DNA of 64,000 bases from Blastocatellia bacterium (GTDB taxonomy: Bacteria > Acidobacteriota > Blastocatellia > HR10): positions 3,120-67,119 of the forward strand of contig JANWYV010000022.1 in the NCBI GenBank assembly GCA_025055075.1, read 5' to 3'. The notes beneath the pieces are model-generated. The model had not been told where the DNA came from and ran no database searches. It saw only the letters and a program-made list of their open reading frames with translations. This document shows, piece by piece, positions 8,814 through 36,196 of this stretch. The position numbers and the translations under genes are program-made. The first letter of the stretch is position 1; each line of letters begins with the position of its first letter.

Positions 8814-10127
8814 TCAAATCACCTGCCCCTCTGGGATGACGCTATTTTTGGGGACGATCACAATGCCTTCCCGAATGTAGTAATTCGGCCCGTCGGCGTG
8901 TTGAAGTCCAGCTTCGTTCACGATGCGCGCGCCAGCACCGATACGCACGTTCCGATCGAGGATCGCGCGGCGAATGACAGCGCCTTCTCCAATGCCGATC
9001 GGCGGGAGACCAAGGGCACGATCCCGCTCCTGCTCTTCTGGCGAGGGGAAGTATTCCGCGCCGAAAGCGATCACGCCGTCCAAATGAGCACCTTTCTCCA
9101 CGCGGCTGCGGAGCCCGAGCATTGAGCGCTCTATCCGCGCGCCCGTCACTAAAGAGCCGTTGGCGATCATGGAGTTCACGATCTCGCTCTCGCGGATCTT
9201 GGCCGGGGGAAGATAGCGCGGGCGCGTGCAAAGCGGCGCGTTCGGATCGTAGAAAGAGAGCGGCGGCTCTGCGTCGAGCATCCGCATATGCGCATCGTAG
9301 TAGGCGCTGATGGTGCTCATCTCTTCCCAATACCCACGATGCCAATAGGCGTAGACTCGAGATTGAGCGACAGCCAGTGGAAGCAGCTCCAATCCGAAGT
9401 CGAAGGGTCCCAAAGCCTGTTCCAAAAGCGACGCGAGTGCCTCTCGCCGAAAAAGGTAAATTCCCGTAGCGATCAAGTACGGCGCGTTCCCATCCGCCAT
9501 GCGAAATTCTCGCAAAGTATCCTGGCGCGGCTCTTCCTGATACCGAAGGACACGCCAGTCCGATGGCCGAGGAGAATCCACGCGCGCGCCTGCGACCCTC
9601 ACGACTCCCCGCGTGCGTGCTACCGTTTCATCGGCTGCGACGACGACCAGCGTGAGATCCGCCTCTGTCTCTACGTGGAAGGCGATGACGTCTTGCAAGG
9701 CGATCCAGCCAACGCAGTCTCCAGGAAGGATTAGGATATGTCGCGCCGGCCACGGCTCGAAATGTCGCCAGGCGCGGCGGATGGCATCAGTGGGACTGCG
9801 ATACCATTGTTGGCTCTCCAAGGTTTGCTCAGCCGCGATGACCTCGACGAATTCCACCGATTCGGAGAGCCGCCCGAACCGATACGTCTGCATCACGTGC
9901 CGATTGAGCGAAAGCGAGTTGAATTGCGTGAGGACGTAAATGCGCCGCAGCCCGGCATTCAAACATTGGCTGAGGGCTAGATCAATGAGCCGATACTGTC
10001 CGATGAAGGGCAATGCGGCTTTCGCCCGCTCCGCCGTCAGAGGGAAAAGGCGCGCTCCTTGTCCAAATCCCAACACGATGGTCAAAACCTGGTGCGCGAG
10101 CCCGCGTGTGACCGCCACCCCGTTCAT
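8814..10127 (-). CDS. glgC: Glucose-1-phosphate adenylyltransferase (ADP-glucose pyrophosphorylase) family
   Basis: GlgC signature GQGARLFPLTAERAKAALPFIGQYRLIDLALSQCLNAGLRRIYVLTQFNSLSLNRH and a left-handed beta-helix C-terminus. The start is either 10139 or 10127. Its stop lies about 45 nt before the next gene's ATG. Confidence 0.8.
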   Translation of the reverse strand: MNGVAVTRGLAHQVLTIVLGFGQGARLFPLTAERAKAALPFIGQYRLIDLALSQCLNAGLRRIYVLTQFNSLSLNRHVMQTYRFGRLSESVEFVEVIAAEQTLESQQWYRSPTDAIRRAWRHFEPWPARHILILPGDCVGWIALQDVIAFHVETEADLTLVVVAADETVARTRGVVRVAGARVDSPRPSDWRVLRYQEEPRQDTLREFRMADGNAPYLIATGIYLFRREALASLLEQALGPFDFGLELLPLAVAQSRVYAYWHRGYWEEMSTISAYYDAHMRMLDAEPPLSFYDPNAPLCTRPRYLPPAKIRESEIVNSMIANGSLVTGARIERSMLGLRSRVEKGAHLDGVIAFGAEYFPSPEEQERDRALGLPPIGIGEGAVIRRAILDRNVRIGAGARIVNEAGLQHADGPNYYIREGIVIVPKNSVIPEGQVI

Positions 10128-17168: not shown

Positions 17169-20100
17169 TCATCGGATGGTGAGAGTGAGCTCATAGGTGA
17201 AAGTCGGGCCGCCGCGGCCTTGGGCTTCGGTGAGGCGCACGAAATAGCGTCCGAAAAGGGGCAGGGTGACGAAAGTCAGCGAAGGATCGCGCGTATCTGA
17301 GGCGACGCTCTCTGCGAGCTTCACCATCCCGAAGAAAAGCTCGAGCTTGAGCGTCGCTGGAGAAGGAGGCGTGAGCGTCTTCGCTCTGACCGTGATCGTC
17401 ACCACATCACTGCGCTCGCTGTCGAAGAAGAAAACGTCTGCGTCTCCGGCGGGATTGATCGTCCCCGTGATCGGCGTCTCTGGTGGGAGTTGATTCGCTT
17501 GTGCGAATTCATTATTGGGCTCCGTCTCCTGCGGGCGTGCGGCGCCCGTGAGCGTCACCGTAGCTCGGTAGATATAGTTCGGCCCGCCCTTCCCGTCGAA
17601 GCTGCGCACGCGGAAGAAATAGCGACCGTCAGCGGGAATCGTGAAGCTGAGCCGCGAATCGGTCGAACCTTCGGCATCATCGTTCTCGGCCAATTGCTGG
17701 CCGCGACTGTCAAAGAGCGTGACGACCGTATCCAAAGGCGAAGGCGGCATGAGCGAGCGCGCGTCCAGATCAATGACGAGCTGTTGGCCGCGTCTGGCTT
17801 CGAAGGCGAAGAAGTCCACGTCGCCCGCTGGGTTGATCGTCCCGCTTACGGTCACATTCGGCGTGATCGCATTCGCCTGAGTCAGCGAATTATTCGGCTC
17901 CGATTCCATCGCCATGCCGGGAGGAGGGGGAGCGGCTCCCGTCAGCGTGACGAGCGCCTCATACGTGTAAGAGGGACCGCCTTTCGGGCTGAAGTTGCGG
18001 ATGCGCACGAAGTACTGCCCCGAACGGGGGATTTCAAATGTGAGGAGCGAGTCGAGCGCGCCTTCGGCGTCATCGTTCTCCGCGAGCTGTTGCCCGTTGC
18101 TATCGAAGAGCGTGACAATGGTATCCGCCTCGGACGGCGGCGTGAGCGAGCGCGCATTGATATCCACCGTCAGGCGCTGACCGGGATTGGCCGTGAATGA
18201 GAAGAAGTCCACGTCGCCAGCTGGATCAAGCCTTCCCACGATGAGGACATCGGGCGTGATCGCCTGAGCTTGGGCGAAGGCGTTATTGGGTTCGGATTCG
18301 TTCACTCGCGCGGGCGCGCCTCCAGTGAGGGTGACGGAAGCTTCGTAGGTGAAGTCTCGTCCGCCTTTGTTCCCGAAGTCCCGGATGCTGAAGACATAGC
18401 GTCCGGCGGCGGTGAACGTGAACTCGAGCAGAGAATCGAGCTGTCCGGGCGCGCGATCATCGTTCTCGGCCAGTTTTCGCCCGCTGCTGTCGAAAAGCGC
18501 GACGATCGTATCAGCCGCCGAAGGAGGAGTGAGCCGCTTGGCCGCGACATCAATCCGCACGCGTTGTCCGGCGCTCGCTTGGAAGGCGAAGAAGTCCACG
18601 TCGCCCTGAGGATCGAGCACGCCGCGGATCGTTACATTCGGTGTGATCGGATTCGCTTGCGCGACGGAATTATTCGGCTCGGCTTCAGTGAAGCGACCGG
18701 GGGGAACGCCGCCCGTGAGGGCCACGCGCACTCGATAGGCGAAGTTCGGCCCGCCACGTTGCGAGAAATCGCGAATGCGAAAGATGTATCGGCCTGCTGC
18801 GGGCACGGTGAAGCGTAAGAGCGAATCCCGCGTGTCCGAGGATTCGTCGTCGTTCTCGGCCAATTGTCGCCCGCTGCTGTCGTAGAGCGTGACGACCGTA
18901 TCAGCCGGAGATTTCGGCGTGAGCGATTGCGCATCCACGTCAATGATCACCTGCTGTCCGGCACTGGCTTCGAAGGCGAAGAAATCCACGTCATTGGCTG
19001 GATCCAAGGTGCCCACAATGGTGGTATCGGGGACGATCGAATTCGCCGTCGCGAGCGTGTTGTTCGGCTCCGTCTCGTTCACCATTCCTTCGCTCATCCT
19101 CTCAACAGCAGACGTCGCCGATGTGGAGAACGGCGCGCTCGTGCTGCTGAAGCGGAAGGTGAACGCGAGCGTGGCGTCTTGCGGCCGAGGGACCGGCCCC
19201 CCAGCGCTCGTGATCGCGATGAGGTAAGTCGTTGCTGCTCTCACGTTCACTGTGAGCTGAGAAGTGGCCAGGAAGCCCCAATCGTCGTTGCAGGCGATCT
19301 CCCGGAGCGCGGGGCATGAGCCCGTGTAGACGGCGATGGTCGTATCGTAGCTACTTCCGAGTGTGCTCAGCGTGATCGTCCCGTTGCTCGGAGGGGTGAA
19401 GCTATACCATACGCTTTGGCTGCCGCGCCTTCCTCCTGTGCAGGATTGCAGGGGGTCAGTCGCCACCGAGGTCGCCGTCCAGACGTTCACTCGATCCACG
19501 AACGATGTGCCAGAGATCGGTGTCGCCGAAGCGCAGTCGTCGTTCGACGGGCGCGCGACCGAAGTGTTCAAGATGATGTCCGCATTCTCGACGACCATCC
19601 CGGGGAAGACAGTGATGAGCGCGCGATCGTTCGGATCATCGCGATCAGATTCTCCAGGGCCACTGTAGAATTCGGGGGGCGCCGGCAAAGGGGAAGGGGG
19701 ATCCAACGGGCCGACACGTGAGGCATCAGTGAAGCGCGGATCAATAGGCTCGATCTCGACCGTATAGGTGCCGGGAGGAAGCCCTCGAAGCTCGTAGTAT
19801 CCGAACAGATCGGGATCGTCCGAGCCCACGTATCCCAGGCGAAACGATTTGTCCGACTTCGGAACGGTGCCAATGTAGCGGTATCCGGAGATAGTGGAGA
19901 CAGCCGTCAGTCGCGGATCATCCACTTTCCGCGCGATGACGTTCGCCCCCATGAAGCCATGGCCGTCGGCGTAGCGGATGCGTCCGCGGATCGTCCCGGT
20001 CGTCAGCCCGAAGTCGGGCGCGGGATAGAGGTTGGAGATCGCCACTCGATCATCGAGATGCAGCGTGGCCCACTCCTCGACGCGAAATTGCGCGGTGAAG

Positions 20101-20741
20101 AAGGGAAACATCGTGGGAACCGTGTGATCGTTGGTCGGGTCAGCGTCGAAGACGGCTTCCGAGTTGAGCTGGGAATGATCGAGGCCGAGGAAATGACCGA
20201 TCTCGTGGGTGAGGAAGCCGCGAAGCCGATCCGGCGTTGTGGCGAAGCGCCCGTTGATGAGGATGACGCCTTGGAGGATTTCAGCATCCGTCATTGTGAG
20301 TGGGGCGGCCCACGCTCCCAAACGAGTGCTGCTGCCCCGTCCAAGGAGAGCGTCCATGGCGCTCCCATCGGAATCCAGGATCACTGGGTTCGTGCAGAGG
20401 CGTTGCTCGGTGCACTGGCGGATGATCTCGTTCATGAAGGAGAGCACGTTCATGCCGGTCACATCTACGCTCGTGAGGCCGACCATTTGGAATCGAAGGC
20501 GCGCTGTAGGGACACTCGCCCAGGTCTCGAAGGCCGCTCTGACGAGCGCTGCGGCATCTGCGTGAGAGAGTGAGCCGAGCGACCCTTGATCGAGCGTGTA
20601 TGTGATCGGCCGCGTCGGGTTCCAGCGGAACGGCAGACCCCCTCGGGTAAAGGCTATGGGGCCGCCGGCCCAAAGGCGGAAGGAGTGAAAGGGCCCAAGG
20701 AGGACCATTGCGCTGAGGATGAGAGCGATTCGACGAGTCAT
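17169..20741 (-). CDS. Secreted zinc metalloprotease (metzincin, matrixin/M10-like) with carboxypeptidase-regulatory-like domain and six pre-peptidase C-terminal (PPC) domains
   Basis: Signal peptide MTRRIALILSAMVLLG. HEIGHFLGLDHS zinc site (HExxHxxGxxH) with a downstream Met-turn. One Cys-containing PPC-like domain followed by five tandem ~120-aa repeats (EPNNxxAQANxITP...GDVDFFxF...LAENDD...GRY). GGAGG RBS 9 nt upstream. Confidence 0.85.
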   Translation of the reverse strand: MTRRIALILSAMVLLGPFHSFRLWAGGPIAFTRGGLPFRWNPTRPITYTLDQGSLGSLSHADAAALVRAAFETWASVPTARLRFQMVGLTSVDVTGMNVLSFMNEIIRQCTEQRLCTNPVILDSDGSAMDALLGRGSSTRLGAWAAPLTMTDAEILQGVILINGRFATTPDRLRGFLTHEIGHFLGLDHSQLNSEAVFDADPTNDHTVPTMFPFFTAQFRVEEWATLHLDDRVAISNLYPAPDFGLTTGTIRGRIRYADGHGFMGANVIARKVDDPRLTAVSTISGYRYIGTVPKSDKSFRLGYVGSDDPDLFGYYELRGLPPGTYTVEIEPIDPRFTDASRVGPLDPPSPLPAPPEFYSGPGESDRDDPNDRALITVFPGMVVENADIILNTSVARPSNDDCASATPISGTSFVDRVNVWTATSVATDPLQSCTGGRRGSQSVWYSFTPPSNGTITLSTLGSSYDTTIAVYTGSCPALREIACNDDWGFLATSQLTVNVRAATTYLIAITSAGGPVPRPQDATLAFTFRFSSTSAPFSTSATSAVERMSEGMVNETEPNNTLATANSIVPDTTIVGTLDPANDVDFFAFEASAGQQVIIDVDAQSLTPKSPADTVVTLYDSSGRQLAENDDESSDTRDSLLRFTVPAAGRYIFRIRDFSQRGGPNFAYRVRVALTGGVPPGRFTEAEPNNSVAQANPITPNVTIRGVLDPQGDVDFFAFQASAGQRVRIDVAAKRLTPPSAADTIVALFDSSGRKLAENDDRAPGQLDSLLEFTFTAAGRYVFSIRDFGNKGGRDFTYEASVTLTGGAPARVNESEPNNAFAQAQAITPDVLIVGRLDPAGDVDFFSFTANPGQRLTVDINARSLTPPSEADTIVTLFDSNGQQLAENDDAEGALDSLLTFEIPRSGQYFVRIRNFSPKGGPSYTYEALVTLTGAAPPPPGMAMESEPNNSLTQANAITPNVTVSGTINPAGDVDFFAFEARRGQQLVIDLDARSLMPPSPLDTVVTLFDSRGQQLAENDDAEGSTDSRLSFTIPADGRYFFRVRSFDGKGGPNYIYRATVTLTGAARPQETEPNNEFAQANQLPPETPITGTINPAGDADVFFFDSERSDVVTITVRAKTLTPPSPATLKLELFFGMVKLAESVASDTRDPSLTFVTLPLFGRYFVRLTEAQGRGGPTFTYELTLTIR
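17172..19085 (-). repeat. Five tandem in-frame coding repeats of ~370 nt (PPC domains) inside the metalloprotease gene
   Basis: Repeated protein blocks are also visible at DNA level, for example a recurring GTTATTCGGCTC / GTTGTTCGGCTC block that encodes the EPNN motif. Confidence 0.7.
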
Positions 20742-20760
20742 GGCAAAAGGACCTCCATCA

Positions 20761-21336
20761 CTAGCGGGATGCGTTCGCCCCTCGCGCGATGAGTGCGGCG
20801 AGCACCTCATACTCGATGGGGCCATGCTCATGGCGACTGACGAGCGCCCGCTCGGCGGACGAGAGTGCCAAGCGGGCGGACGAGTCGTCGAAGAGCCCTC
20901 GGTTATCGAAGCCGTTGACAGCCATCCGTCGTTTCGTCTGCGGATCTCGGAAGAGGCGGAATTTCCCAGCCATTCCAGCAACGGGGCTGGTCAGGCCATA
21001 ACGGCTCTTCGGATAGAGGAAGAGCATGACCTCCTCGCCTTCCCGATAGCTGGGCAAATGAAATGGACGAAAGGTCTTCGAACCGCCGATCTGGAGGAAC
21101 GTGAACGAATCTCCCTCGAGGCTCCCTTTGAACGCGCGCTCGACGGCGAGCGTGACGCGCGTGATGGTCAGGAAGGGATATTGTGGGTGTGGTTCTTCGC
21201 GAACCTTGAGAACACGTCCGACGAGGATCGTGCCCGCGCTCTCGACCAGCTCCGCAAGCGTCGCCGGGGCGTGTTGGGCTCGCGCTGAGGGCGCGAGGCA
21301 TCCCAGGAGAAGAAGAACGATGAGAGCGCGTCTCAT
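20761..21336 (-). CDS. Hypothetical secreted protein encoded immediately upstream of the metalloprotease
   Basis: 191 aa. Signal peptide MRRALIVLLLLGCLAPSARAQ. GGGAGGAAAGG RBS. 20-nt gap to the protease start. No recognisable domain. Confidence 0.6.
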   Translation of the reverse strand: MRRALIVLLLLGCLAPSARAQHAPATLAELVESAGTILVGRVLKVREEPHPQYPFLTITRVTLAVERAFKGSLEGDSFTFLQIGGSKTFRPFHLPSYREGEEVMLFLYPKSRYGLTSPVAGMAGKFRLFRDPQTKRRMAVNGFDNRGLFDDSSARLALSSAERALVSRHEHGPIEYEVLAALIARGANASR

Positions 21337-21550
21337 GACCTTTCCTCCCATGCAAAGATTGTCGCGCGTGGCGCGCCGGTGCGTGAAAGTTTCATTTTGC
21401 CCACGGATTCGCTTCATCGTAGTGATCATCTCCCCCATTTTCGACCGACATCGTAGACCAGGCATCGAGCGTCGGCAAGAGGGGCAAGTAATGGCACGGC
21501 GAGCGCGGCCGCTTGCGTGGCATCGGGAGTGACTTTTATGATCAAGGGCG

Positions 21551-22066
21551 ATGGAGCCGGATGTCTCCTCCAAACGAAGCTTCGGGCGCGTGCGCGAGCG
21601 AGCGCAGGCGATCGAACGCGAGATCGAGGAAGAATTCCCGGAGTGGCCCCGTTGGAAGCAGCGCGCGCGGCGGTGGGGGATGATTGGTCTCGTGCTCGTC
21701 CTGATGGGGATCGCATTCGGTGAGCTTCTCGATTGGCTCGAGCGCCGAGAGGAGATACGACGCCAGCGAGAGCGTGGGCGGGTCATCCAACTCATCAGTC
21801 CGGTGAGCGAAGTGCGCGAGGAGATCATCGAGTTCGTCTGGCGGCCGTCACCGCTTGTTGATCGCTATGTCGTCGAGGTGAGCGATGTGAGCTATCGGCT
21901 GATTTGGCGGAGTCCGCCAGTGAAAGAGGTCGAGCTGCGACTGCCCGAGGCCGTGCGTCGGCAATTGCATCGCGGCGAACGTTATCTCTGGCAGGTGCGG
22001 GGCTTCGATGCGAGCGAGAACGAGGTGGCCAGCTCACCATTTGAGGAGATTCTCATCGTGCGATGA
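21551..22066 (+). CDS. Hypothetical single-pass membrane protein
   Basis: Charged N-terminus, one TM segment (WGMIGLVLVLMGIAFG), then an extracytoplasmic domain of about 110 aa. Weak RBS. Confidence 0.45.
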   Translation: MEPDVSSKRSFGRVRERAQAIEREIEEEFPEWPRWKQRARRWGMIGLVLVLMGIAFGELLDWLERREEIRRQRERGRVIQLISPVSEVREEIIEFVWRPSPLVDRYVVEVSDVSYRLIWRSPPVKEVELRLPEAVRRQLHRGERYLWQVRGFDASENEVASSPFEEILIVR

Positions 22067-22195
22067 GGCGTGTCAGCGGACGATCCATCACGGCCGCGTT
22101 CTCCGATCGGTTCGCCAGTAGATAAAGAGGCATTCCCTCTGGTACCATTTCCCTCTTGAGTGAACGGCGTCTGGTGCGCTCGAGGGGAAGGGGAT

Positions 22196-22801
22196 ATGTG
22201 GAAGAAAGGCGGCGTGGCTCTAGCGCTTGTTGGAGCGTTCCTGATGGGCGCGTGGGCGCGCGGGGAGCTTTCGCCTGGCGAAGCGCGCCGCTTAATCGCG
22301 ACGGTCGGGGGGATTCAACTCCCCAAGGAAAACGTGCACGTTCGTCGGATTGATCGCCTAGGCGGGCGCGATGCCGTCGTCGAAGCGTTTGTCCTGACGG
22401 CCTTCAAATTCACGCGGCGGGACAACGAGTGGGAGGTCACCGAAGTGCGCGTCGGCGATCGGCAATGGGAGAGCGTTGAGCTGGTGACGACGGCTGTGCG
22501 CGCGGAGAAGACGCGACGCACGATCGCCGACTTGCGCGAGGTGGCGGCCGCCGTCGAGGCCTTCCGCAAGGAGCGCGGCTTTTACCCCTCGGTCGCCGAT
22601 TTCGTCGCCCTCGTGGATCAGCTCACGCCGACCTATCTCAAGCGGGTGATTCGCGAGGATTGGTGGCACCGCCCGTTCCTCTACGCGGTCACGGCGAGAG
22701 GCTATCGGTTGGAATCCCTCGGGCCGGATGGCAAACCGGGCACGGGCGATGAGATCATCCTGGAGAACGGAGAACTCGTCGCGCCGCGTCCCGTATTGTG
22801 A
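22196..22801 (+). CDS. Membrane-anchored protein with type II secretion GspG-like globular domain but no prepilin leader
   Basis: The C-terminus (WWHRPFLYAVTARGYRLESLGPDGKPGTGDEI) matches the GspG pseudopilin C-terminal pattern. The N-terminus is a plain hydrophobic anchor without the G/FTLIE prepilin peptidase motif. GAGGGGAAGGGG RBS. Confidence 0.5.
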   Translation: MWKKGGVALALVGAFLMGAWARGELSPGEARRLIATVGGIQLPKENVHVRRIDRLGGRDAVVEAFVLTAFKFTRRDNEWEVTEVRVGDRQWESVELVTTAVRAEKTRRTIADLREVAAAVEAFRKERGFYPSVADFVALVDQLTPTYLKRVIREDWWHRPFLYAVTARGYRLESLGPDGKPGTGDEIILENGELVAPRPVL

Positions 22802-22813
22802 GGGGAGCAAGGA

Positions 22814-23287
22814 ATGGACGAGCGGACGTCTTTCGAGATGCGCCATCGGCTTGCGGTGTTTCTGCATCTGGCCATGGTGTCCAGTGGGCTCGTCGCGTTT
22901 TTGGTGAGTTATCTCTTCAGCCAGACGATGGGCGTTTCGATCGCCTCGGCCGCTGAGCATAGGGCGCTCCGGCAAGCGCTCTATGGCGCCGCCTTCGTCA
23001 TGAGCATTGGGGTGATCGTGCTGCGTCGTTGGCTGTTCGGCATCGGGCGCGTAGGGCGCGTGGCGCAGCGACACGGGATCGTGGGCGTCATCGAGCATCT
23101 GCTGAAGTCGACGATCATCTTGGGGGCGATCAGCGAATCGGTGGTACTTGTGGGGTTCGTGTTGAGCATGCTCACGCGCGTGTTCGAAGACATGTGGCGC
23201 TTGGGAGGGATCGGCATGGTCCTCCTGCTGTACACGTACCCCTGGCGCTCGATGTGGGCTCGCGCCATCGAGCGCGCACAGCCATAG
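22814..23287 (+). CDS. Hypothetical polytopic membrane protein (4 predicted TM segments)
   Basis: 157 aa with four hydrophobic stretches. 12 nt downstream of the previous gene. Confidence 0.5.
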   Translation: MDERTSFEMRHRLAVFLHLAMVSSGLVAFLVSYLFSQTMGVSIASAAEHRALRQALYGAAFVMSIGVIVLRRWLFGIGRVGRVAQRHGIVGVIEHLLKSTIILGAISESVVLVGFVLSMLTRVFEDMWRLGGIGMVLLLYTYPWRSMWARAIERAQP

Positions 23288-23297
23288 GGAGGCGAAG

Positions 23298-25322
23298 ATG
23301 CGCGAAGTCGGAAAACGAGCGCGGATTCTCATAAGCACATTCGGCGTTTTGCTTCTGCTGGGAAACGAAGCGCCAGCGGGAGCACCGGTGATTCTCCAAA
23401 GGAGGCCGGAGGCATCGGCGGAACGACGCGAGGAGCCCAAACGCAAGCCGCGGGTCGAAGCATTGTTGATCTATGGCGAAGCGATGCGAGCGGCCATGCG
23501 GGGCGATTATATTCGCGCCCTGGAGTTGTTTCGGAAAGTGGCTGCGCTCGATCCCACAGCTCCTCAGCCGCACGTCGCCATGGCGGAGCTGTATTATCAG
23601 CTTCGGAATTTCGCCCAGGCGCAACGCGAGGCGGAAGCGGCGTTGAAGCTCGATCCGAAGGAGATCGGCGCGCACCGTATTTTGGGACGCCTCCTTCGCG
23701 AAGAAGCGCTCACGGCGCGGGATCGGGAGAAAGCCCGTCGCGCGATCGAGGCCTTCCGGAAGGTCGTGGTCGAGGACGATTTGGACGTCGAAGCGTGGCA
23801 ATCGCTCGCGCAACTCTATGCGTTTTTGGAAGACACGGATGGGTTGAAGGAGGCTCTCGAGCGATGGACCGGGAGTGATCCGACGGCTGACGAAGCATTC
23901 TACCGATTGGCGTTGATCTATTTCGATCGGCGGCAGTATCGGCAAGCTGCCGAGAATGCGGCGCGCGCGCTAATGAATCAGCCGGAATCTGAGTACGCCA
24001 TCTTGCTGGCGAAATCGCTCCTCTATCAGGGGCACACGACCGAGGCGCTTCAGGCGTATCGCGAGGCGCTCGAGCGCGACCCGAGCAATAGTGAGCTGCG
24101 AATCAACTATGCCGAGGCCCTCATCTTCTCCGGGAAGTACGACGAGGCCATCGAGATCCTGCGGCGCATTCTGACCGAACAGCCGCGGAACTTAGAGGCT
24201 TTGCGCTTGACGGCGCAAGCCCATCGCCGCGCGGGGCGTCGCGCCGAGGCCATCCAGACGTTGAAGAACGCGCTCAGGGAGAGCCCTCCGGGTGAGGGGC
24301 TGAACGTGCGCTTTGTGCTCGCGCAGACATACGAGGAGATCGGGCAGGTGGATGAGGCGATTGCGACTTACGAGGAGATCCTCAAGGCCTTGCTCGCCCC
24401 CGATGGGACAGCGCCCGAGCGCCATCGCGAGGCTATCGAGATGGTGCTGACAAACATGGCGCTCGCCTATCGGCAGGCGGGACGACGCGAGGATGCTTTT
24501 CGCGTGTTCGAGCGCATGCGGCGCGTATTGGGGGAGAAGAATCCGCGAGCGGACCTCTTGATCGTGGACACCTTCCGCGAGGAGCGGAATTTCGAGGCTA
24601 TGCTCGCGCATGCGCAGGAGGCGGCCGCGCGATATCCCGAGGAGCGTCGCTTTCGACTCCTGCAGGCACAAGCCCTCGGACGCTTGGGGCGCGTGGACGA
24701 AGCGCTGCGGCTACTCGATGGCTTGCTCACCGGACTCAGCGAGGACATCGAAGTGCTCTCGATGAAAGCCCTCGTGCTCAGCGATGCCGAACGCTACGCG
24801 GAAGCCGAGGCCGTGGTGCGGGAGGCTCTGCAGCGCGATCCCCGCAATAATGGGTTGCTCATCCAATTGAGCCTGATTCAGGAGCGATTGGGGCGCTTCG
24901 CCGAAGCCGAGGCGACGCTGCGGCAGGTGCTCGAACGCGATGCCGATAATGCGACGGCCCTCAACAACCTCGGCTATTACTTGGCGGAGCGAGGGGAACG
25001 GTTGGAGGAAGCCCTGGAGCTGATCCGTCGTGCGGTGAACATTGAGCCGAATAACGGTGCGTTCTTGGACAGCCTCGGGTGGGTTTACTTCCAGATGGGG
25101 AATCTGGACGAAGCCGAACGGTATCTCGAGCAAGCCGTGCTCTATCAACCGCGCGATGCCACGATCCACGAGCATCTGGGAGATCTCCATCAGCGTCGGG
25201 GCCGGCTCGAGCAAGCGCTTCAGGCCTACGAGCGCGCGCTGCAGTTGGCGACCGAGTCGCGCGAGCGCGAGCGCATCCATCAGAAGTTGGAGAAACTGCG
25301 CCAAGCGATGGGACGGAAATAA
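23298..25322 (+). CDS. Secreted tetratricopeptide-repeat protein (~18 TPR units)
   Basis: Signal peptide followed by continuous TPR consensus (A..Y.....G.Y..A...........P.......LG). 674 aa. Confidence 0.75.
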   Translation: MREVGKRARILISTFGVLLLLGNEAPAGAPVILQRRPEASAERREEPKRKPRVEALLIYGEAMRAAMRGDYIRALELFRKVAALDPTAPQPHVAMAELYYQLRNFAQAQREAEAALKLDPKEIGAHRILGRLLREEALTARDREKARRAIEAFRKVVVEDDLDVEAWQSLAQLYAFLEDTDGLKEALERWTGSDPTADEAFYRLALIYFDRRQYRQAAENAARALMNQPESEYAILLAKSLLYQGHTTEALQAYREALERDPSNSELRINYAEALIFSGKYDEAIEILRRILTEQPRNLEALRLTAQAHRRAGRRAEAIQTLKNALRESPPGEGLNVRFVLAQTYEEIGQVDEAIATYEEILKALLAPDGTAPERHREAIEMVLTNMALAYRQAGRREDAFRVFERMRRVLGEKNPRADLLIVDTFREERNFEAMLAHAQEAAARYPEERRFRLLQAQALGRLGRVDEALRLLDGLLTGLSEDIEVLSMKALVLSDAERYAEAEAVVREALQRDPRNNGLLIQLSLIQERLGRFAEAEATLRQVLERDADNATALNNLGYYLAERGERLEEALELIRRAVNIEPNNGAFLDSLGWVYFQMGNLDEAERYLEQAVLYQPRDATIHEHLGDLHQRRGRLEQALQAYERALQLATESRERERIHQKLEKLRQAMGRK

Positions 25323-30660: not shown

Positions 30661-33657
30661 TCAAAACACGATCTTCACCGCGAGTTGCAGGATTCGAGGG
30701 TCGAACGTCTCCGTCGGCGTGCCGAAGTCAGTGCGGCGCACGAGCTTCCCCGCGTTGGGCCCACTTGTGGCGAGCGTGTACATGATGGCGTTCACGCTCG
30801 GCAAGGCCCCGCCCAAGGTGATCGTCCGAAAGTTCGTCCGATTGAGGATGTTGAACCCTTCGAAGATGAAGTGAAGTTTCGCCTTCTCTCCTAAAGCGAT
30901 CTCGCGGGTCAGGCGCGGATCGAGACTGACGAAGTTGAATCCGCGGAATGTGTTGCGCCCGAATCCCGGCACGCGATCCGTCCGCGCATTGGTGTCATTG
31001 TTGAGATCGGTCCCGACCAGGGCCGAGTAAGCGGGAGCGGATTGTGCCGTCAAAATCCCGCTCACGGACCATCCTCCGAGGATCGCGCGCGCCACACGAT
31101 TCTGCAGATTCCGCGCATAGGCGAGGTCCCAGATCCAACTGAGGACGAGGCGTTGGGGAATGTCCGTGTAGCTGATCCCTCGATCATCGCGGAGGTTGAA
31201 GGGATCTTGCACCTGCTTGGCGTCATCGCCACTGCTGAAGGCGACGACGGAGGTCGCATCCGGCGTATCGTCAATCGCTTTGGAGATCGTGTACGAGAGG
31301 AGGAATTGGACGTTGTGCGAGAATCGTTTGTGGACCTGAAAGGCCGCGCCGTGATAGATCGAATTCGCCGTGCTCTCGAAGAGGCTGATGCGGACGAACT
31401 GAGGGAGCAGGCGTCCGGGGAAGCGACGGTACGTCCGGATGCCTTCTCCGACGATCTCGATCTGAGCGAGCACGGGAGGGAGCAGATTGATGTTGCGCGT
31501 GCGCTGCAAATGCGTTCCCTTCACAGCGAGATAATTCGCCGAGATCGAGAGATTGGGCGCCAGCTCGTATTCCACCCCTAGGCTTCCTTGCTGGACATAG
31601 GGATTCACGTAATCCGGGGCGAAGACGAAGATGCTCGGTGGGGAGGGAACGCCTCCAGTTGGAGGCCGATCGAAGCGTTGCGGGTACGTCGGCACGAGAT
31701 CGCCCGTGAACGTGAGCACGCGCACGTTGATCGCGTTCTGGGAGTGAGCCTGAGCCGCCATGATCGAAGGCGTTCGCGCATAAAAGATGCCGTAGCCGCC
31801 TCGGATCACCAGCCGATGGCTGGCCAACGGACTCCAAGCGAATCCGAACCTCGGCGCGAAGTTGTTCTTGTCGAGATTGATGCGGTCGGTCCGAAGGCCG
31901 AGCGCGGCCAGCCCCGGATCGGGATTTCGCGTCGGGGGATCGGCGATGTTCTGGAGGTCGTAGCGAAGCCCGAGATTGAGCGTGAGGCGCGGCGTCACGC
32001 GCCAATCGTCTTGGAAGAATCCGGCGAATTCGCTGTTGTGAGGAAATGTCAGGGGACCTGTCGTGCCCTCACCAGCGAAGGCCTGCACGTAGCGCGAGGG
32101 GCGTCCCGTGGCGAATTGCGCCAGGCTGTCGAAGAAATACTGCCCACCGAATTGGCCGGGGAAGAAGTTCTTGATGCGGTCAATGTTGATGTCCACGCCG
32201 AACTTCAGCCCATGACGCCCGATCAAGGCCGAGAGGTTATTGACGAGTTGATACCGGCGGATCGTCGTCTCGCGCGGGCTGAAGAAATTTCGACCGATCG
32301 TCAGCACGACGCGTCCGCGCTCGCGGATCTCCGCTTCGGGCTTATCGCTGTTGGCTTTCCCGGGTTGTTTGTCGCGGGCGAATTGGAAGCGAAATTCATT
32401 CAGCCATCGCGTCGTGAGCGTCGAGCTGAGCGAGAGGGTGAGTGTGTCGGTCCAGACCAGACTATCCCCCGTATGTTCGAGAGCGCTCGTCTGCCCGGGA
32501 TTCTCCAGGTTTCCACCAGTGAAGCGTTGGGCATTATATCGTCCGCTCAGGCGATGTGCGGGAGAGATCTGCCAATCCCCCTTCCCCATGAAAACGTCTT
32601 GATCGAACGTCCGATTGTAGCTCTGGGCCAAGGCCAGGAGGGATTGAAAGGCGCGTTGTGAGTCCGGATCTGAGGGAGGGACGAATCCCGGCCCGCCCGG
32701 AATGACAACGTTGGGGAGCTTCTGGCGCTGTCCGTCATAGAGGAAGAAGAAGAACGCCTTATCGCGAACGATGGGGCCGCCGACATTACCGCCGAATTGG
32801 TTGATGTGAAACGGAGGCTTGGGCAAACGGCGGGCGTTGCTGAAGAAGTCGTTGGCATTGAGCGCCTTATCCCGATAGTACCAGAAGGCCGTGCCGTGAA
32901 ATTCATTCGTGCCCGATTTCGTCACGACGTTGATGACGGCTCCTCCAGCGCGACCGAATTCCGCGGAATAACTGTTCGTGTTGACCTGGAACTCTTTGAC
33001 GGCGTCAATGCTGAACTGATATGGGGCGCGCCCGGACCCCGTGCGGCCGAGCGTCTGGCCGAAGAACGTGTTGTTATTGTCCACGCCGTCAATTTGTAAG
33101 CTGTTGAGCGGCCCTCGCAATCCGCCGAAACTGAGATCTCCAGCGCGATGATCGCGCGTGACCCCAGGCGTCAGGAGGATGAAATCGAGGAAGTTACGAC
33201 CTTGTGCCGGTAAGTTCGCCACCGCTCGATCGTTGACCGAAGCCGCGACATGCGTGCGCGTGACTTCCACCATCGGGGGTTCGGCCGTCACGGTCACGAC
33301 CTCCGCGAGCGCTGCGGCTTGAAGCGTGAGGTCGAGCGTCAGCGTTTGTCCGACCATCAATCGGATCCCGCTGCGCTTGAGCGTCGCGAAACCTGGCGCT
33401 TCCGCGATCAGCTCGTACTCGCCGACGGGCAGAAGCGAGAGGTAGTAGTAGCCCACCTCATTAGTCATCGTCGCGCGTTCAAATCCCGTGTTCACATTCC
33501 GCACGGTGACCTTCGCATTTGGGATCACCGCTCCCGTTTGGTCGGTGATGGTCCCTTTGAGGATCGCATCGGAGGCTTGGGCGAAAACCGCCCCCGCGAA
33601 TCCTCCGAAGAGAAGAATCCAGAGGATGAAGCTTTGCGGGAATCGCGCTCGGCTCAT
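30661..33657 (-). CDS. TonB-dependent outer-membrane receptor with N-terminal carboxypeptidase-regulatory-like domain
   Basis: Signal peptide. CarbopepD_reg-like beta-sandwich (ILKGTITDQTGAVIPNAKVTVRNVNTGFERATMTNEVGYYYLSLLPVGEYEL). Plug domain (NLPAQGRNFLDFILLTPGV...LRGPLNSLQIDGVDNN). Long beta-barrel ending in a terminal Phe. Confidence 0.8.
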   Translation of the reverse strand: MSRARFPQSFILWILLFGGFAGAVFAQASDAILKGTITDQTGAVIPNAKVTVRNVNTGFERATMTNEVGYYYLSLLPVGEYELIAEAPGFATLKRSGIRLMVGQTLTLDLTLQAAALAEVVTVTAEPPMVEVTRTHVAASVNDRAVANLPAQGRNFLDFILLTPGVTRDHRAGDLSFGGLRGPLNSLQIDGVDNNNTFFGQTLGRTGSGRAPYQFSIDAVKEFQVNTNSYSAEFGRAGGAVINVVTKSGTNEFHGTAFWYYRDKALNANDFFSNARRLPKPPFHINQFGGNVGGPIVRDKAFFFFLYDGQRQKLPNVVIPGGPGFVPPSDPDSQRAFQSLLALAQSYNRTFDQDVFMGKGDWQISPAHRLSGRYNAQRFTGGNLENPGQTSALEHTGDSLVWTDTLTLSLSSTLTTRWLNEFRFQFARDKQPGKANSDKPEAEIRERGRVVLTIGRNFFSPRETTIRRYQLVNNLSALIGRHGLKFGVDINIDRIKNFFPGQFGGQYFFDSLAQFATGRPSRYVQAFAGEGTTGPLTFPHNSEFAGFFQDDWRVTPRLTLNLGLRYDLQNIADPPTRNPDPGLAALGLRTDRINLDKNNFAPRFGFAWSPLASHRLVIRGGYGIFYARTPSIMAAQAHSQNAINVRVLTFTGDLVPTYPQRFDRPPTGGVPSPPSIFVFAPDYVNPYVQQGSLGVEYELAPNLSISANYLAVKGTHLQRTRNINLLPPVLAQIEIVGEGIRTYRRFPGRLLPQFVRISLFESTANSIYHGAAFQVHKRFSHNVQFLLSYTISKAIDDTPDATSVVAFSSGDDAKQVQDPFNLRDDRGISYTDIPQRLVLSWIWDLAYARNLQNRVARAILGGWSVSGILTAQSAPAYSALVGTDLNNDTNARTDRVPGFGRNTFRGFNFVSLDPRLTREIALGEKAKLHFIFEGFNILNRTNFRTITLGGALPSVNAIMYTLATSGPNAGKLVRRTDFGTPTETFDPRILQLAVKIVF

Positions 33658-33940
33658 AAGAACGCCTCCATTTTGGATTTCAGCCTTCGTTCGAGTTCAA
33701 TTTGTAAGCGGGAATATGCCATCTCCTCCGTCGCTTGTCAAGCGAACGCTGCGCCCCGGCTGAACTCGCGGAAGGCTCGTGCGCGGGGTTCCGCGTCGGA
33801 TTCCTCAAGAGGCAGCGCGTCAGATCAAGGCGAGGGCAATCGGGCGTGAGACCGCTCGCGCCCTGAGTGCTCATGCTGTCGCAGCATCTTGGGGAGCGCG
33901 TGGAACTCCCGATTGGGGGTTTGGTACAATTCCCTCGCTT

Positions 33941-36196
33941 ATGGTGGAGCCGAAGCGAACACCCGTGCGGGCGTGGGTAGTGATCCTGAGCCTCTCGGCG
34001 GCAACGTTCATCGCCTTCATGGTGTTGCTTCTGCTCGGCGTCTTGCGCATCCCGCCGATGGATGTGGTGAGCGCTGATGAGACGCTGATCCTCTATTTGT
34101 TGACGGCGTTCAACTTCGTCGCCTTCTCAGTCTTCGCCTTCATTCTGGCGCGGAATCTGCTGCGGCTGATGCGAGAGCGGCGCGCGCGTCAGCTCGGCTC
34201 GCATTTGAAGGCGCGGCTCGTGCGATATTTCATCCTCATCTCGATCCTGCCGCTCGTCTTCCTGGCCATGTTCTCTTATCTCGTCATCAATCGCACGCTG
34301 GAGAAGTGGTTCGGCGAGCCATATCGCAATATCGTGCGGGAATCGGAGAAGCTCGCGCGGGCTTATGTGGAGGATGAGGTGGCCGATCTTCGAGCGACGC
34401 TCGATCGCATGGAGCGGCAATTGGCCGTCGGAGAGGCTCGATCCCGAGAGCGCGCGATCGCCGCTGAGTTGGAGCATCCGAAGGTGAGGGAGATCACCCT
34501 CATTCAAGGGACTCAGCCGCGGACCTGGACGAAACCGGGCTTCGTGCGATCGCCGCATCTCGAGGAGGCGTTCGCTGCGGCCATTGACGCTGTGCGGGCC
34601 GAACGCTCGTATGAGGCATTCCCCGTCGAAGGGGATGAAGCGCGATTCGTCGTTCTCGGCCGTCCCATCGGTGCGTCCTCTGAAGGGGCGAACGTCACTG
34701 GGATCATTCTCCTGGCGGAGGTTCCGCAGCAGATCGCCCGAGTCATGGCGGCGCTGTCCCGGCAGCAAGAGGCGTATGAGCAGCTCCATCGTCGGCAGGG
34801 GCAGACGCGGCGCGTCACGCTGCAGGTGCTCGGTGTGATCACGTTCTTGCTCCTTTTCGCCGCGACGTGGACGGGGATGTATTTGGCCAAGGGGATCACC
34901 GAACCGATTCAGGCCCTGGCCGAAGCGACGCAGCACGTCGCGCGGGGAGATTTCTCGCGACCCGTCGTTTGTGTGGCCGAGGACGAGCTGGCCATGCTTG
35001 TGGACTCGTTCAATCGAATGATCGCGGAACTCTCGGAGAACCGGCGTCGTCTGGAAGCTTCGGCTCGCGAGCTGCAGGCGATGAATCTCGCCCTGGAAGA
35101 GCGGCGCCGATATATCGAGACGGTGTTGGAGAGCTTGAGCACGGGCGTCATCTCCTTCGAGGAGTCGGGGCGGATCACGACCGTGAATCGCGCGGCGCGC
35201 GAGATGCTGCGCCTCTCCGATCCATTGCCCGCGGAGACGGCTGTGGATCTCTTTCGTTCAGTCTTCGGCGAGGCACAGGCGGCGATCGTCGAGGGCGTGA
35301 TCGCGCGCGCGTCCACAGAGGGATGGGCTGTGCAAGAGATAGATTGGCCGACGCCGATGGGACAGCGGCATCTCATCCTCACGGCTTCACCGTTGTGGGA
35401 CCCCGAGGGCGCGATGCGCGGCGCCGTCCTCATGCTGGAAGATGTCACCGAGCTCGTGCAAGCGCAGCGACAGGCCGTCTGGAGCGAAGTCGCCCGTCGC
35501 ATGGCGCATGAGATCAAGAATCCGCTCACGCCGATTCGGCTCTCGGCCGAACGGATCGCCAAGCATCTGCTCGGCGATCCGAAGGCGCTCGCCGAAGAGC
35601 GATATCGCCGGATCGTGCGGGAGGGAACGGCGATTATCCAGAGCGAGGTGCAGACCCTTCAACGGTTGGTGAACGAGTTCGCACAATTCGCGCGATTGCC
35701 GGAGGCACGCTTGGTCGAAGGGGAGATCAACGATGCGATTCGAGCGGCCTTGCAGCTTTACGATGAGCGTCCCGAGGGGATTGTGTTGGAGGCCGATCTG
35801 GCGCCGGATGTGCCGCGTCTTCGATTCGATGCTGAGCAGCTCAAGCGGGCGCTCGTCAATCTCATCGAGAACGCCGTGGAAGCGCTCGATGGCGTGCCGG
35901 GGGAGAAGCGGATCACCGTGAGCACGCGCTATCTGCCCGAGCGCGGACGCGTCCGCGTGAGCGTCGCCGACACTGGACCGGGAATTGCGCCGAGCGTGCG
36001 GGAGAGGCTCTTCACGCCCTATTTCTCGAACAAAGCGAAGGGCATGGGATTGGGCTTGGCGATCGTCCGACAGATCATCGCCGAGCACGGGGGAACGATT
36101 TGGGTGGAGGAGAACGAGCCGCGCGGCGCGCGCTTCGTCATCGAGCTGCCCGTCCTCGACCGTTCGTCATCGTCGCTATGGCCCACTCGATCCTGA
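33941..36196 (+). CDS. ntrY: Sensor histidine kinase, NtrY-like (multi-TM, HAMP, PAS, HisKA, HATPase)
   Basis: N-terminal TM helices. HAMP domain (GITEPIQALAEATQHVARGDFS). H-box HEIKNPLTPIRLSAERI. G-boxes (DTGPGI, GMGLGLAIV). Start codon uncertain. Confidence 0.75.
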   Translation: MVEPKRTPVRAWVVILSLSAATFIAFMVLLLLGVLRIPPMDVVSADETLILYLLTAFNFVAFSVFAFILARNLLRLMRERRARQLGSHLKARLVRYFILISILPLVFLAMFSYLVINRTLEKWFGEPYRNIVRESEKLARAYVEDEVADLRATLDRMERQLAVGEARSRERAIAAELEHPKVREITLIQGTQPRTWTKPGFVRSPHLEEAFAAAIDAVRAERSYEAFPVEGDEARFVVLGRPIGASSEGANVTGIILLAEVPQQIARVMAALSRQQEAYEQLHRRQGQTRRVTLQVLGVITFLLLFAATWTGMYLAKGITEPIQALAEATQHVARGDFSRPVVCVAEDELAMLVDSFNRMIAELSENRRRLEASARELQAMNLALEERRRYIETVLESLSTGVISFEESGRITTVNRAAREMLRLSDPLPAETAVDLFRSVFGEAQAAIVEGVIARASTEGWAVQEIDWPTPMGQRHLILTASPLWDPEGAMRGAVLMLEDVTELVQAQRQAVWSEVARRMAHEIKNPLTPIRLSAERIAKHLLGDPKALAEERYRRIVREGTAIIQSEVQTLQRLVNEFAQFARLPEARLVEGEINDAIRAALQLYDERPEGIVLEADLAPDVPRLRFDAEQLKRALVNLIENAVEALDGVPGEKRITVSTRYLPERGRVRVSVADTGPGIAPSVRERLFTPYFSNKAKGMGLGLAIVRQIIAEHGGTIWVEENEPRGARFVIELPVLDRSSSSLWPTRS

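Follow-up and report, generated by a model that had tools for sequence, protein, structure and literature searches.

The 64,000-nucleotide window analyzed here, a stretch of contig JANWYV010000022.1 from a Blastocatellia bacterium, encodes on its minus strand a small exported protein of 191 amino acids and, directly downstream, a secreted metzincin protease of 1190 amino acids. Comparison with other genomes and metagenomes identifies the two genes as a conserved module that recurs in several phyla and is entirely unannotated: a partner protein with a predicted TIMP (tissue inhibitor of metalloproteinases) fold is encoded together with a matrixin-like catalytic core that lacks a propeptide. Judging from the modeled folds, the small protein probably inhibits the metzincin.

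Results

The small gene is consistently followed by a metzincin gene

Hidden Markov models (HMMs) of the catalytic core and of the small-protein family were run on all six-frame open reading frames (ORFs) of each fetched locus. In every one of the 97 loci that were reached through the small protein and could be judged, the next gene on the same strand encodes a metzincin of the same catalytic family; these loci come from Acidobacteriota, an anammox planctomycete, cultivated Pseudoalteromonas and soil metagenomes. All 25 loci drawn from close homologues and from one-genome-per-species contigs carry a core-matching ORF directly 3′ of the small gene (E 1e-61 to 1e-215); most are from Blastocatellia, and the others are from Terriglobales, Ca. 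Anammoxibacter and two bins labeled Heliobacteriaceae and Pseudomonadota. A metagenome scan for a distant, TFRQY-type subgroup confirmed 395 relatives, of which 80 were kept, and an adjacent metzincin was present at all 69 loci for which 450 nt or more of sequence 3′ of the small gene was available. At the fringe of the family, three members (E 1e-13 to 1e-14) were likewise each followed by an HExxHxxGxxH protein related to the core (3/3). The pair also occurs in the cultivated Pseudoalteromonas donghaensis HJ51, in which a tblastn search of plasmid and chromid records located WP_036972403.1 followed by the 877-aa WP_036972402.1, both annotated as hypothetical. Chance adjacency is excluded. 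A first-pass annotation of the window had proposed the small protein as a cognate partner of the protease and had named conservation of the small ORF and its co-occurrence with homologous proteases as the test of that proposal; both were found, and the partnership is strongly supported by conservation, a confident fold and the 97/97 adjacency.

The intergenic distance was compared in 12 pairs, the one in the window and 11 others that had called genes, and ranged from a 14-nt overlap to a 33-nt gap, with a 4-nt overlap in half of them (6/12). Flanking genes vary between loci and lineages. Partnered proteases range in length from 326 to 1335 aa, and their C termini are absent, composed of PPC domains, or unrelated. 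The same pair occurs with proteases of 326–465 aa that have no PPC domains, so the partner is not dedicated to a giant PPC protease as the annotation had supposed. Pairing tracks the catalytic core and the beta-sandwich that follows it, not the PPC array; the galactose-binding-like domain and PPC array of the window protease are a lineage-specific appendage outside the conserved module. In two loci, L015 (5060-9237) and L017 (6872-10946), a single small gene stands ahead of two metzincin cores in tandem, which suggests that one partner serves two paralogous proteases there.

Some loci are arranged differently. L005 (8675-12522), L006 and L027 (1242-4057) encode core-only metzincins of 449–465 aa followed by a separate gene for a protein of He_PIG (and PPC) repeats; the binding modules that are fused to the protease in the window seem to be supplied in these loci as a separate polypeptide. 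Locus L029 has two metzincin cores in tandem and no small-family gene upstream, and its upstream gap contains short ORFs with repeated "GFEPT"-type translations that might indicate tRNA genes.

The small protein belongs to a very large family without annotation

The small protein had been described as having no recognizable family. This is correct in that no Pfam or NCBIfam model matches it and that nothing was obtained in Pfam at E≤10 for 30 family members; relatives are named "hypothetical protein" only, and an identical protein is recorded as hypothetical protein N0A16_03210 on a 3.08-Mb contig of a Blastocatellia metagenome-assembled genome. However, it belongs to a very large, undescribed family. 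A word-indexed search returned 14 homologues with 34–100% identity, and a profile search of 1.84 billion cluster representatives retrieved 7,349 proteins with a threshold of E≤1e-3, against 1,811 when it was set to E≤1e-10 and 148 when it was set to E≤1e-30. Among the family matches, those listed (150) are full-length or nearly so (141–283 aa). Among 90 distinct members, the most conserved positions are G40, H50-P51 (96–98%), K70-G71, F80, Q82 and Y97; further conservation is seen in a loop running from Y113-G-L-T-S-P-V-G to Q123-G-(R/K)-F126 and at D131, N141, N145 and L148-F149. No Cys is conserved in these 90 proteins.

The N terminus is signal-like, reading MRRALIVLLLLGCLAPSARA up to the predicted cut and Q immediately after it. 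The Ala at position −1 of the A-x-A site is kept in 92% of the 90 members, whereas Cys13, the sole Cys of the small protein and part of its signal peptide, is not conserved. Because of this pattern, the small protein is predicted to be exported through Sec and cleaved by signal peptidase I (SPase I), and to be soluble and not a lipoprotein; lipidation at the LLGC sequence (aa 10–13) was considered and rejected on the same grounds. No lipobox, transmembrane segment or wall-binding module was identified in the small protein. Of the three roles offered in the first-pass annotation, anchoring consequently has no feature in its favor, and inhibition and chaperoning stay in contention, with inhibition favored by the TIMP-like fold and the missing propeptide described below.

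The predicted fold of the small protein resembles TIMP and NTR modules

Structure prediction of the small protein alone, as suggested in the first-pass annotation, returned a folded and not a disordered protein (AlphaFold2; predicted local distance difference test score [pLDDT] 83.8, predicted template modeling score [pTM] 0.78). In the model, one helix precedes a barrel of six strands, and three C-terminal helices form an extension of ~45 aa past the barrel; a five-stranded oligonucleotide/oligosaccharide-binding (OB) barrel with flanking N- and C-terminal helices is a feature of TIMP/NTR modules. When the model was compared with the PDB using Foldseek, ranks 1–18 were all occupied by the TIMP/NTR superfamily (E 1e-4 to 8e-3; target template modeling [TM] scores 0.28–0.53, about 0.45–0.5 for single-domain targets), and the superfamily was still dominant to rank 24. 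These matches include the agrin NtA domain (E 1.1e-4, target TM 0.50, root-mean-square deviation [rmsd] 4.2 Å), TIMP-1 (E 1.1e-3), the PCOLCE NTR domain (E 1.3e-3, TM 0.53), TIMP-2 and complement C345C. Generic OB folds such as PriB, SSB and exosome subunits ranked later, with E>1e-2, and a viral structure library searched as a control gave weak generic OB matches only, with poor rmsd. There was no PDB match to the small protein at the sequence level.

The lack of any database annotation is the single point in favor of regarding the small ORF as an unrelated neighbor or as no real gene. That view is scarcely conceivable in the face of 7,349 clusters, a confident fold and adjacency at all 97 loci across contexts and phyla.

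The protease is a matrixin-like metzincin without a propeptide

Pfam matched Peptidase_M10 (PF00413) to the window protease with 31.8 bits (cutoff 24), although the alignment is confined to aa 177–195 around the zinc site; many homologues carry a precomputed PF00413 match, and some are named "matrixin family metalloprotease" by NCBI. An AlphaFold2 model of aa 1–400, built with 54 homologues (pLDDT 90.2, pTM 0.88), is confident from aa ~31 and shows a catalytic domain (~27–245) followed by a high-confidence beta-sandwich (~249–400). The closest PDB structures to the core model in Foldseek were the matrix metalloproteinases (MMPs) MMP-13, MMP-3 and MMP-12 together with karilysin (target TM 0.65–0.73, 18–21% identity), with a few adamalysins and myroilysin interspersed among the matrixins. 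The zinc-site sequence and the modeled fold bear out the M10-like catalytic domain that had been called from the sequence.

In an alignment of 54 sequences, no variation is seen at E180, H183, H189, M211 and D230, and H179 is almost invariant. The zinc site (HEIGHFLGLDHS) has the HExxHxxGxxH pattern with a Ser after the third His, and a Met-turn follows, as in matrixins; the Met-turn lies 22 residues past the third His, a spacing that exceeds that in MMPs. The HExGHxLGLxHS zinc motif and the DDxxxIxxLY motif of helix C (LDDRVAISNLYP) also resemble those of matrixins. No conserved His other than H179, H183 and H189 was found in the 54-sequence alignment; the structural zinc site of MMPs, formed by three His and one Asp, is therefore probably missing from the protease.

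G27-P28, just past the signal peptide, is nearly invariant in the 54 homologues. The same mature start, GGP preceded by Ala, recurs in the proteases of loci L005 and L007 and of Pseudoalteromonas (GGPL after Ala in HJ51). According to the alignment and the model, this conserved start directly follows the signal peptide and belongs to the fold, leaving no propeptide. There is also no cysteine switch (PRCGxPD) in the protein, and C110 and C116 are the sole Cys residues of the catalytic domain. Taken with the model, the enzyme is classed as a matrixin-like metzincin that has neither propeptide nor cysteine switch. Export by the twin-arginine translocation (Tat) pathway, considered because both signal peptides in the window contain RR, was rejected because the homologues do not.

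The beta-sandwich always accompanies the catalytic domain and was spanned by the core HMM in all loci. Its first-pass description as carboxypeptidase-regulatory-like is supported by the confident model and by PF13620, which many homologues carry, but the CarboxypepD_reg match in the window protease itself falls under the Pfam cutoff (22.9 bits; cutoff 32.3). In other proteins the catalytic core is fused to cohesin, CARDB, FlgD-Ig, dockerin or type IX secretion system (T9SS)-tail modules.

The C-terminal array contains five diverged PPC repeats

The Pfam check proposed for PF04151 recovered five PPC stretches (E 2e-52, 176 bits; cutoff 25.9), one fewer than the six domains counted in the first-pass annotation; the remaining, Cys-containing segment (aa 399–510) matches GBD_T9SS_assoc (PF23759; 37.4 bits, cutoff 27) and not PPC. 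NCBIfam types the repeats as FDP/DVUA0089. Each opens with EPNN, at aa 558, 688, 817, 948 and 1074. The repeats had been described as near-identical, but they share only 42–64% protein and 61–69% DNA identity and are therefore old duplications.

The only PDB sequence matches of the repeats are the collagen-binding domains of ColH and ColG (3jqw, 5iku). Clostridial collagenases ColG/ColH carry one to three PPC-superfamily domains on an M9 collagenase, whereas the window has five on a matrixin-like enzyme. We take the E-x-E-P-N-N start of the repeats to resemble the Ca-binding N-terminal linker of the ColG/ColH collagen-binding domains. Repeat 5, the most divergent, does not have the D-x-x-x-D-V-D pattern that follows EPNN in repeats 1–3 and may have a different role, e.g., as a C-terminal export or attachment signal.

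Discussion

A candidate inhibitor encoded with its proposed target

We favor the reading that the two genes form an operon and that the small protein, given its TIMP-like fold and the missing propeptide of the enzyme, is a latency or immunity inhibitor of the metzincin, and we rate this as having a somewhat better than even chance of being right. Co-transcription, binding, inhibition and the contact surface are all inferred. Characterized pairs that work on comparable lines are potempin A-karilysin, BamI-Mep72 and AprI-AprA. Lacking a propeptide, a secreted endopeptidase would become active on folding in the periplasm, and a latency or immunity factor would be the simplest reading of a coupled TIMP-fold partner. 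In the proposed mechanism, the soluble, ~19-kDa small protein would be made first, in many relatives by translational coupling, and exported through Sec; it would then bind the catalytic domain 1:1 in the periplasm and block the active-site cleft. Latency provided in trans would replace the propeptide of other metzincins, and the cell's own envelope would be shielded until the enzyme was exported or released. The contact surface would be the loop end of the barrel, comprising the hairpin tip at His50-Pro51, the loop at 113–126 and the short mature N terminus: we infer from OB-fold topology that one end of the barrel carries both the hairpin tip (loop 1-2) and the loop at 108–124 (loop 4-5), and that this is the end that TIMPs insert into the MMP cleft. 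The galactose-binding-like domain and the five PPC domains, which are of the Ca type and have relatives in clostridial collagen-binding domains, may act as a substrate- or surface-binding add-on.

Several observations weigh against an inhibitory role, or at least against one modeled closely on TIMPs. Pfam TIMP/NTR models (PF00965/PF01759) returned nothing for 30 family members at E≤10, and hhalign against human N-TIMP1–4 gave E 0.27 and a probability of 0.2% (the TIMP-1 sequence was checked against the PDB). TIMPs bind zinc through the amine and carbonyl of an N-terminal Cys1 and are held together by disulfides Cys1-Cys70 and Cys3-Cys99; the hallmark of Cys1 plus three disulfides, and with it this inhibitory device, is absent from the small protein. 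Proteins with the NTR fold are not all inhibitors, as agrin NtA and PCOLCE illustrate. The enzyme family can also do without a partner: when loci were sampled from the protease side, the small gene was upstream in 2 of 4 and absent in 2 of 4. The partnerless loci, L029 (2002-6851) and L026 (446-1666), are low-GC and Omnitrophota-like, and in one of them the sequence available upstream amounts to only ~445 nt. Apparently, the small protein always comes with a protease, but some protease branches do without the small protein. Finally, the TIMP-like partner in Listeria monocytogenes, Tim, is a substrate of its metzincin Mtz rather than a demonstrated inhibitor (PMC8235301).

As it has neither a sequence link to TIMP/NTR proteins nor Cys1 and the disulfides, we describe the small protein as TIMP/NTR-like in predicted fold and do not file it as a TIMP family member. 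A bolder proposal would make it the first recognized member of a prokaryotic family that spans phyla, consists of TIMP-fold metzincin inhibitors and is truly homologous to the animal NTR/TIMP module. The MMP-TIMP pair would then predate animals as a bacterial operon, or have been exchanged with them, and would not be a metazoan invention; inhibition would use a cysteine-free device, e.g., the invariant His50 or the mature N terminus as zinc ligand. We consider this improbable.

The small protein could instead be a dedicated folding or secretion chaperone, in effect a propeptide in trans, that brings the protease to its native state or hands it over to an outer-membrane secretion system and is at most a transient inhibitor. 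Strict adjacency and translational coupling fit this equally well, as does the missing propeptide; in secreted proteases, the propeptide often serves as both chaperone and inhibitor, and the two functions are compatible. The ~45-aa C-terminal helical extension, absent from the minimal inhibitors PotA and AprI, also speaks for it. However, the fold matches inhibitors and binding modules and not known steric chaperones, the partnerless relatives argue against an obligatory folding role, and a single small gene stands before two tandem proteases in L015 and L017. A chaperone is a possibility to which we give perhaps one chance in a handful.

Comparison with known inhibitor-peptidase pairs

A close parallel for the inhibitor reading is the potempin A (PotA)-karilysin pair of Tannerella forsythia, in which a gene for an OB-fold inhibitor lies upstream of the protease gene and is co-transcribed with it, and the inhibitor protects the outer membrane; PotA, an outer-membrane lipoprotein of 98 residues, has been reported only from T. 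forsythia (PMC9890683). The window pair shares with it a small signal-peptide ORF directly upstream of the gene for an MMP-like metzincin. In contrast, the mature window partner is 171 residues long, ends in a helical extension and belongs to a multi-phylum family, it is predicted to be soluble, and its protease has no propeptide; the lipobox and outer-membrane anchoring specific to potempins were not found in the small protein. No PotA chain was present in its top 50 Foldseek matches. The general layout of bicistronic inhibitor-peptidase operons, with a co-oriented signal-peptide ORF upstream in a conserved pair, is seen in the window (19-nt spacer) and at the 97 loci.

The serralysin inhibitors AprI/Inh (MEROPS I38) and BamI are likewise small proteins, periplasmic or co-expressed, that are encoded with a secreted metzincin and neutralize it before export. 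AprI forms a barrel of eight strands and uses its N-terminal amine to bind zinc. Neither the small protein nor the 30 family members searched had a Pfam match to the AprI/Inh or BamI families. In Pseudomonas aeruginosa, bamI is located upstream of the Mep72 gene in a bicistronic operon, and BamI relieves the toxicity of Mep72 in E. coli and forms a complex with it (PMC4334185). Unlike the window protease, Mep72 is classified in family M72; BamI has been described as partly unfolded.

The likeness to the animal TIMP-MMP system (MEROPS I35/M10A) lies in the predicted folds, of the partner to NTR/TIMP and of the enzyme to MMP catalytic domains. The window pair differs from it in having no sequence similarity, no Cys1, no disulfides and no cysteine-switch propeptide, and in its genes being linked in a putative operon.

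Mtz-Tim of L. monocytogenes pairs a secreted metzincin with a predicted TIMP-like protein, consistently side by side, in Gram-positive bacteria and prophages; Tim is a lipoprotein, its TIMP likeness comes from Phyre2 only, and the authors noted no earlier record of TIMP-like bacterial proteins (PMC8235301). In this, the only published bacterial metzincin/TIMP-like pair, Mtz cleaves Tim, and the freed fragment carries the phenotype (PMC8235301). The small protein of the window might similarly be a substrate or pro-effector of its protease, as proposed for Tim, or a non-inhibitory subunit that directs the enzyme to its substrate; for the latter, NTR modules such as those of PCOLCE and agrin NtA act as binding or enhancer modules (PMC2871463). 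The gene order is the reverse of that in mtz-tim (partner then metzincin in the window, metzincin then Tim in Listeria), and there is no lipid anchor from which a fragment could be released. Furthermore, conservation is strongest in compact loops of the folded barrel and not in an exposed linker, and a tblastn search of 50,697 phage records found no relative. We regard the substrate or targeting role as unlikely, slightly more so than that of a chaperone.

Bicistronic inhibitor-peptidase operons are already known as a kind of system; what is new is the family, its scale and the TIMP-like, cysteine-free scaffold. If the small protein is an inhibitor, its family of thousands of "hypothetical protein" clusters would explain how a widespread class of propeptide-less, matrixin-like bacterial proteases is exported safely, and protein inhibitors of MMP-type enzymes, of which few are known, would gain a cysteine-free, TIMP-shaped scaffold. 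The potency and selectivity that scaffolds of this sort can reach are illustrated by potempin A, with a Ki of 5–10 nM against MMP-12. The question also concerns how the MMP/TIMP axis arose; the publications on TIMP evolution consulted here regard it as specific to animals, a study of TIMP evolution was confined to Metazoa, and a 2025 survey of bacterial MMP genes mentions neither TIMPs, nor inhibitors, nor neighboring genes. The presence of the pair in the cultivated P. donghaensis HJ51 makes the question experimentally accessible, and the strict gene-pair rule offers a simple aid for naming both genes in soil and hot-spring genomes.

Gene layout and surroundings

Both ORFs, of 1190 and 191 aa, stand as originally called, on the same strand with the small one upstream (Table 1). 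The spacer between them is 19 nt and not 20 nt, and the small gene does have a Shine-Dalgarno-like sequence of its own. Longer mechanical ORFs (355 aa for the small gene, 1270 aa for the protease) were rejected as high-GC artifacts, as family alignments give the shorter starts. No terminator-like site was found in the spacer between the two genes, and promoter and terminator scans gave nothing informative.

Table 1. Features of the gene pair, with coordinates in the window
Feature	Position	Strand	Remarks
Shine-Dalgarno-like GGGAGG	21344..21349	-	7 nt 5′ of the ATG of the small gene; sequence inspection
Small partner gene, 191 aa + stop	20761..21336	-	ATG at 21336, stop 20761-20763; start fixed by homologue alignment
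Small-protein signal peptide, aa 1-20	21277..21336	-	Sec/SPase I type, A-R-A before the cut and Q after it; by inspection; Ala at -1 conserved
Intergenic spacer, 19 nt	20742..20760	-	GGAGG at 20752-20756 ahead of the metzincin gene
Metzincin gene, 1190 aa + stop	17169..20741	-	ATG at 20741, stop 17169-17171
Protease signal peptide, aa 1-25	20667..20741	-	Cut before the conserved mature N terminus GGP
Matrixin-like catalytic domain, aa 26-245	20007..20666	-	PF00413 at the zinc site, invariant residues, Foldseek
Zinc site HEIGHFLGLDHS, aa 179-190	20172-20207	-	HEIGHFLGLDH = aa 179-189
Met-turn M211	20109-20111	-	Invariant in 54 homologues
Helix-C motif LDDRVAISNLYP		-	Inside the catalytic domain
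CarboxypepD_reg-like beta-sandwich, aa 246-398	19548..20006	-	Model; PF13620 in homologues; spanned by the core HMM in all loci
Galactose-binding-like domain, aa 399-510	19212..19547	-	PF23759 GBD_T9SS_assoc; four Cys: 403/434/476/484
PPC repeat 1, aa 558-687	18681..19070	-	
PPC repeat 2, aa 688-816	18294..18680	-	
PPC repeat 3, aa 817-947	17901..18293	-	
PPC repeat 4, aa 948-1073	17523..17900	-	
PPC repeat 5, aa 1074-1190	17172..17522	-	Most divergent, 42-44% identity to the others

The pair lies in ordinary chromosomal surroundings that include genes for MTHFR, TsaE, an NAD(P)HX epimerase/dehydratase, a tetratricopeptide repeat (TPR) protein, tRNA synthetases and subunits of an Mrp antiporter. 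A divergent block on the plus strand (21551-25322) encodes a 171-aa protein, a 213-aa pseudopilin resembling type II secretion system protein G (T2SS-G; PF08334, E 2e-6), a 157-aa predicted membrane protein and a 674-aa TPR protein. These divergent neighbors were considered as further parts of the module and rejected, because synteny is found only in the closest relative, bacterium HR08 (locus L001), and is absent beside more distant pairs.

A different neighbor was observed in P. donghaensis HJ51 (NZ_CP032091.1, 663144-665284; locus L113, 9212-10426). About 1 kb downstream of the metzincin pair, a 193-aa hypothetical protein with a lipobox-like ILSGC is encoded 14 nt upstream of an S8 serine peptidase (stop at 9793, start at 9808). 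The 193-aa protein does not match the small-family HMM; with the S8 peptidase it could be a second, potempin-like inhibitor-peptidase pair.

Elsewhere in the window, a minus-strand gene (30661-33657) encodes an outer-membrane beta-barrel protein of 998 aa that carries a CarboxypepD_reg domain at its N terminus (PF25183 and PF13620), and a HAMP/PAS histidine kinase gene (33779-36196) lies next to it on the opposite strand. The segment 60001-64000 has an AT skew of up to ~0.23, compared with an absolute AT skew of no more than 0.12 elsewhere. Its minus strand encodes membrane subunits of an Mrp/Mnh-type cation antiporter (PF00361, PF00420, PF03334), and these genes probably explain the skew.

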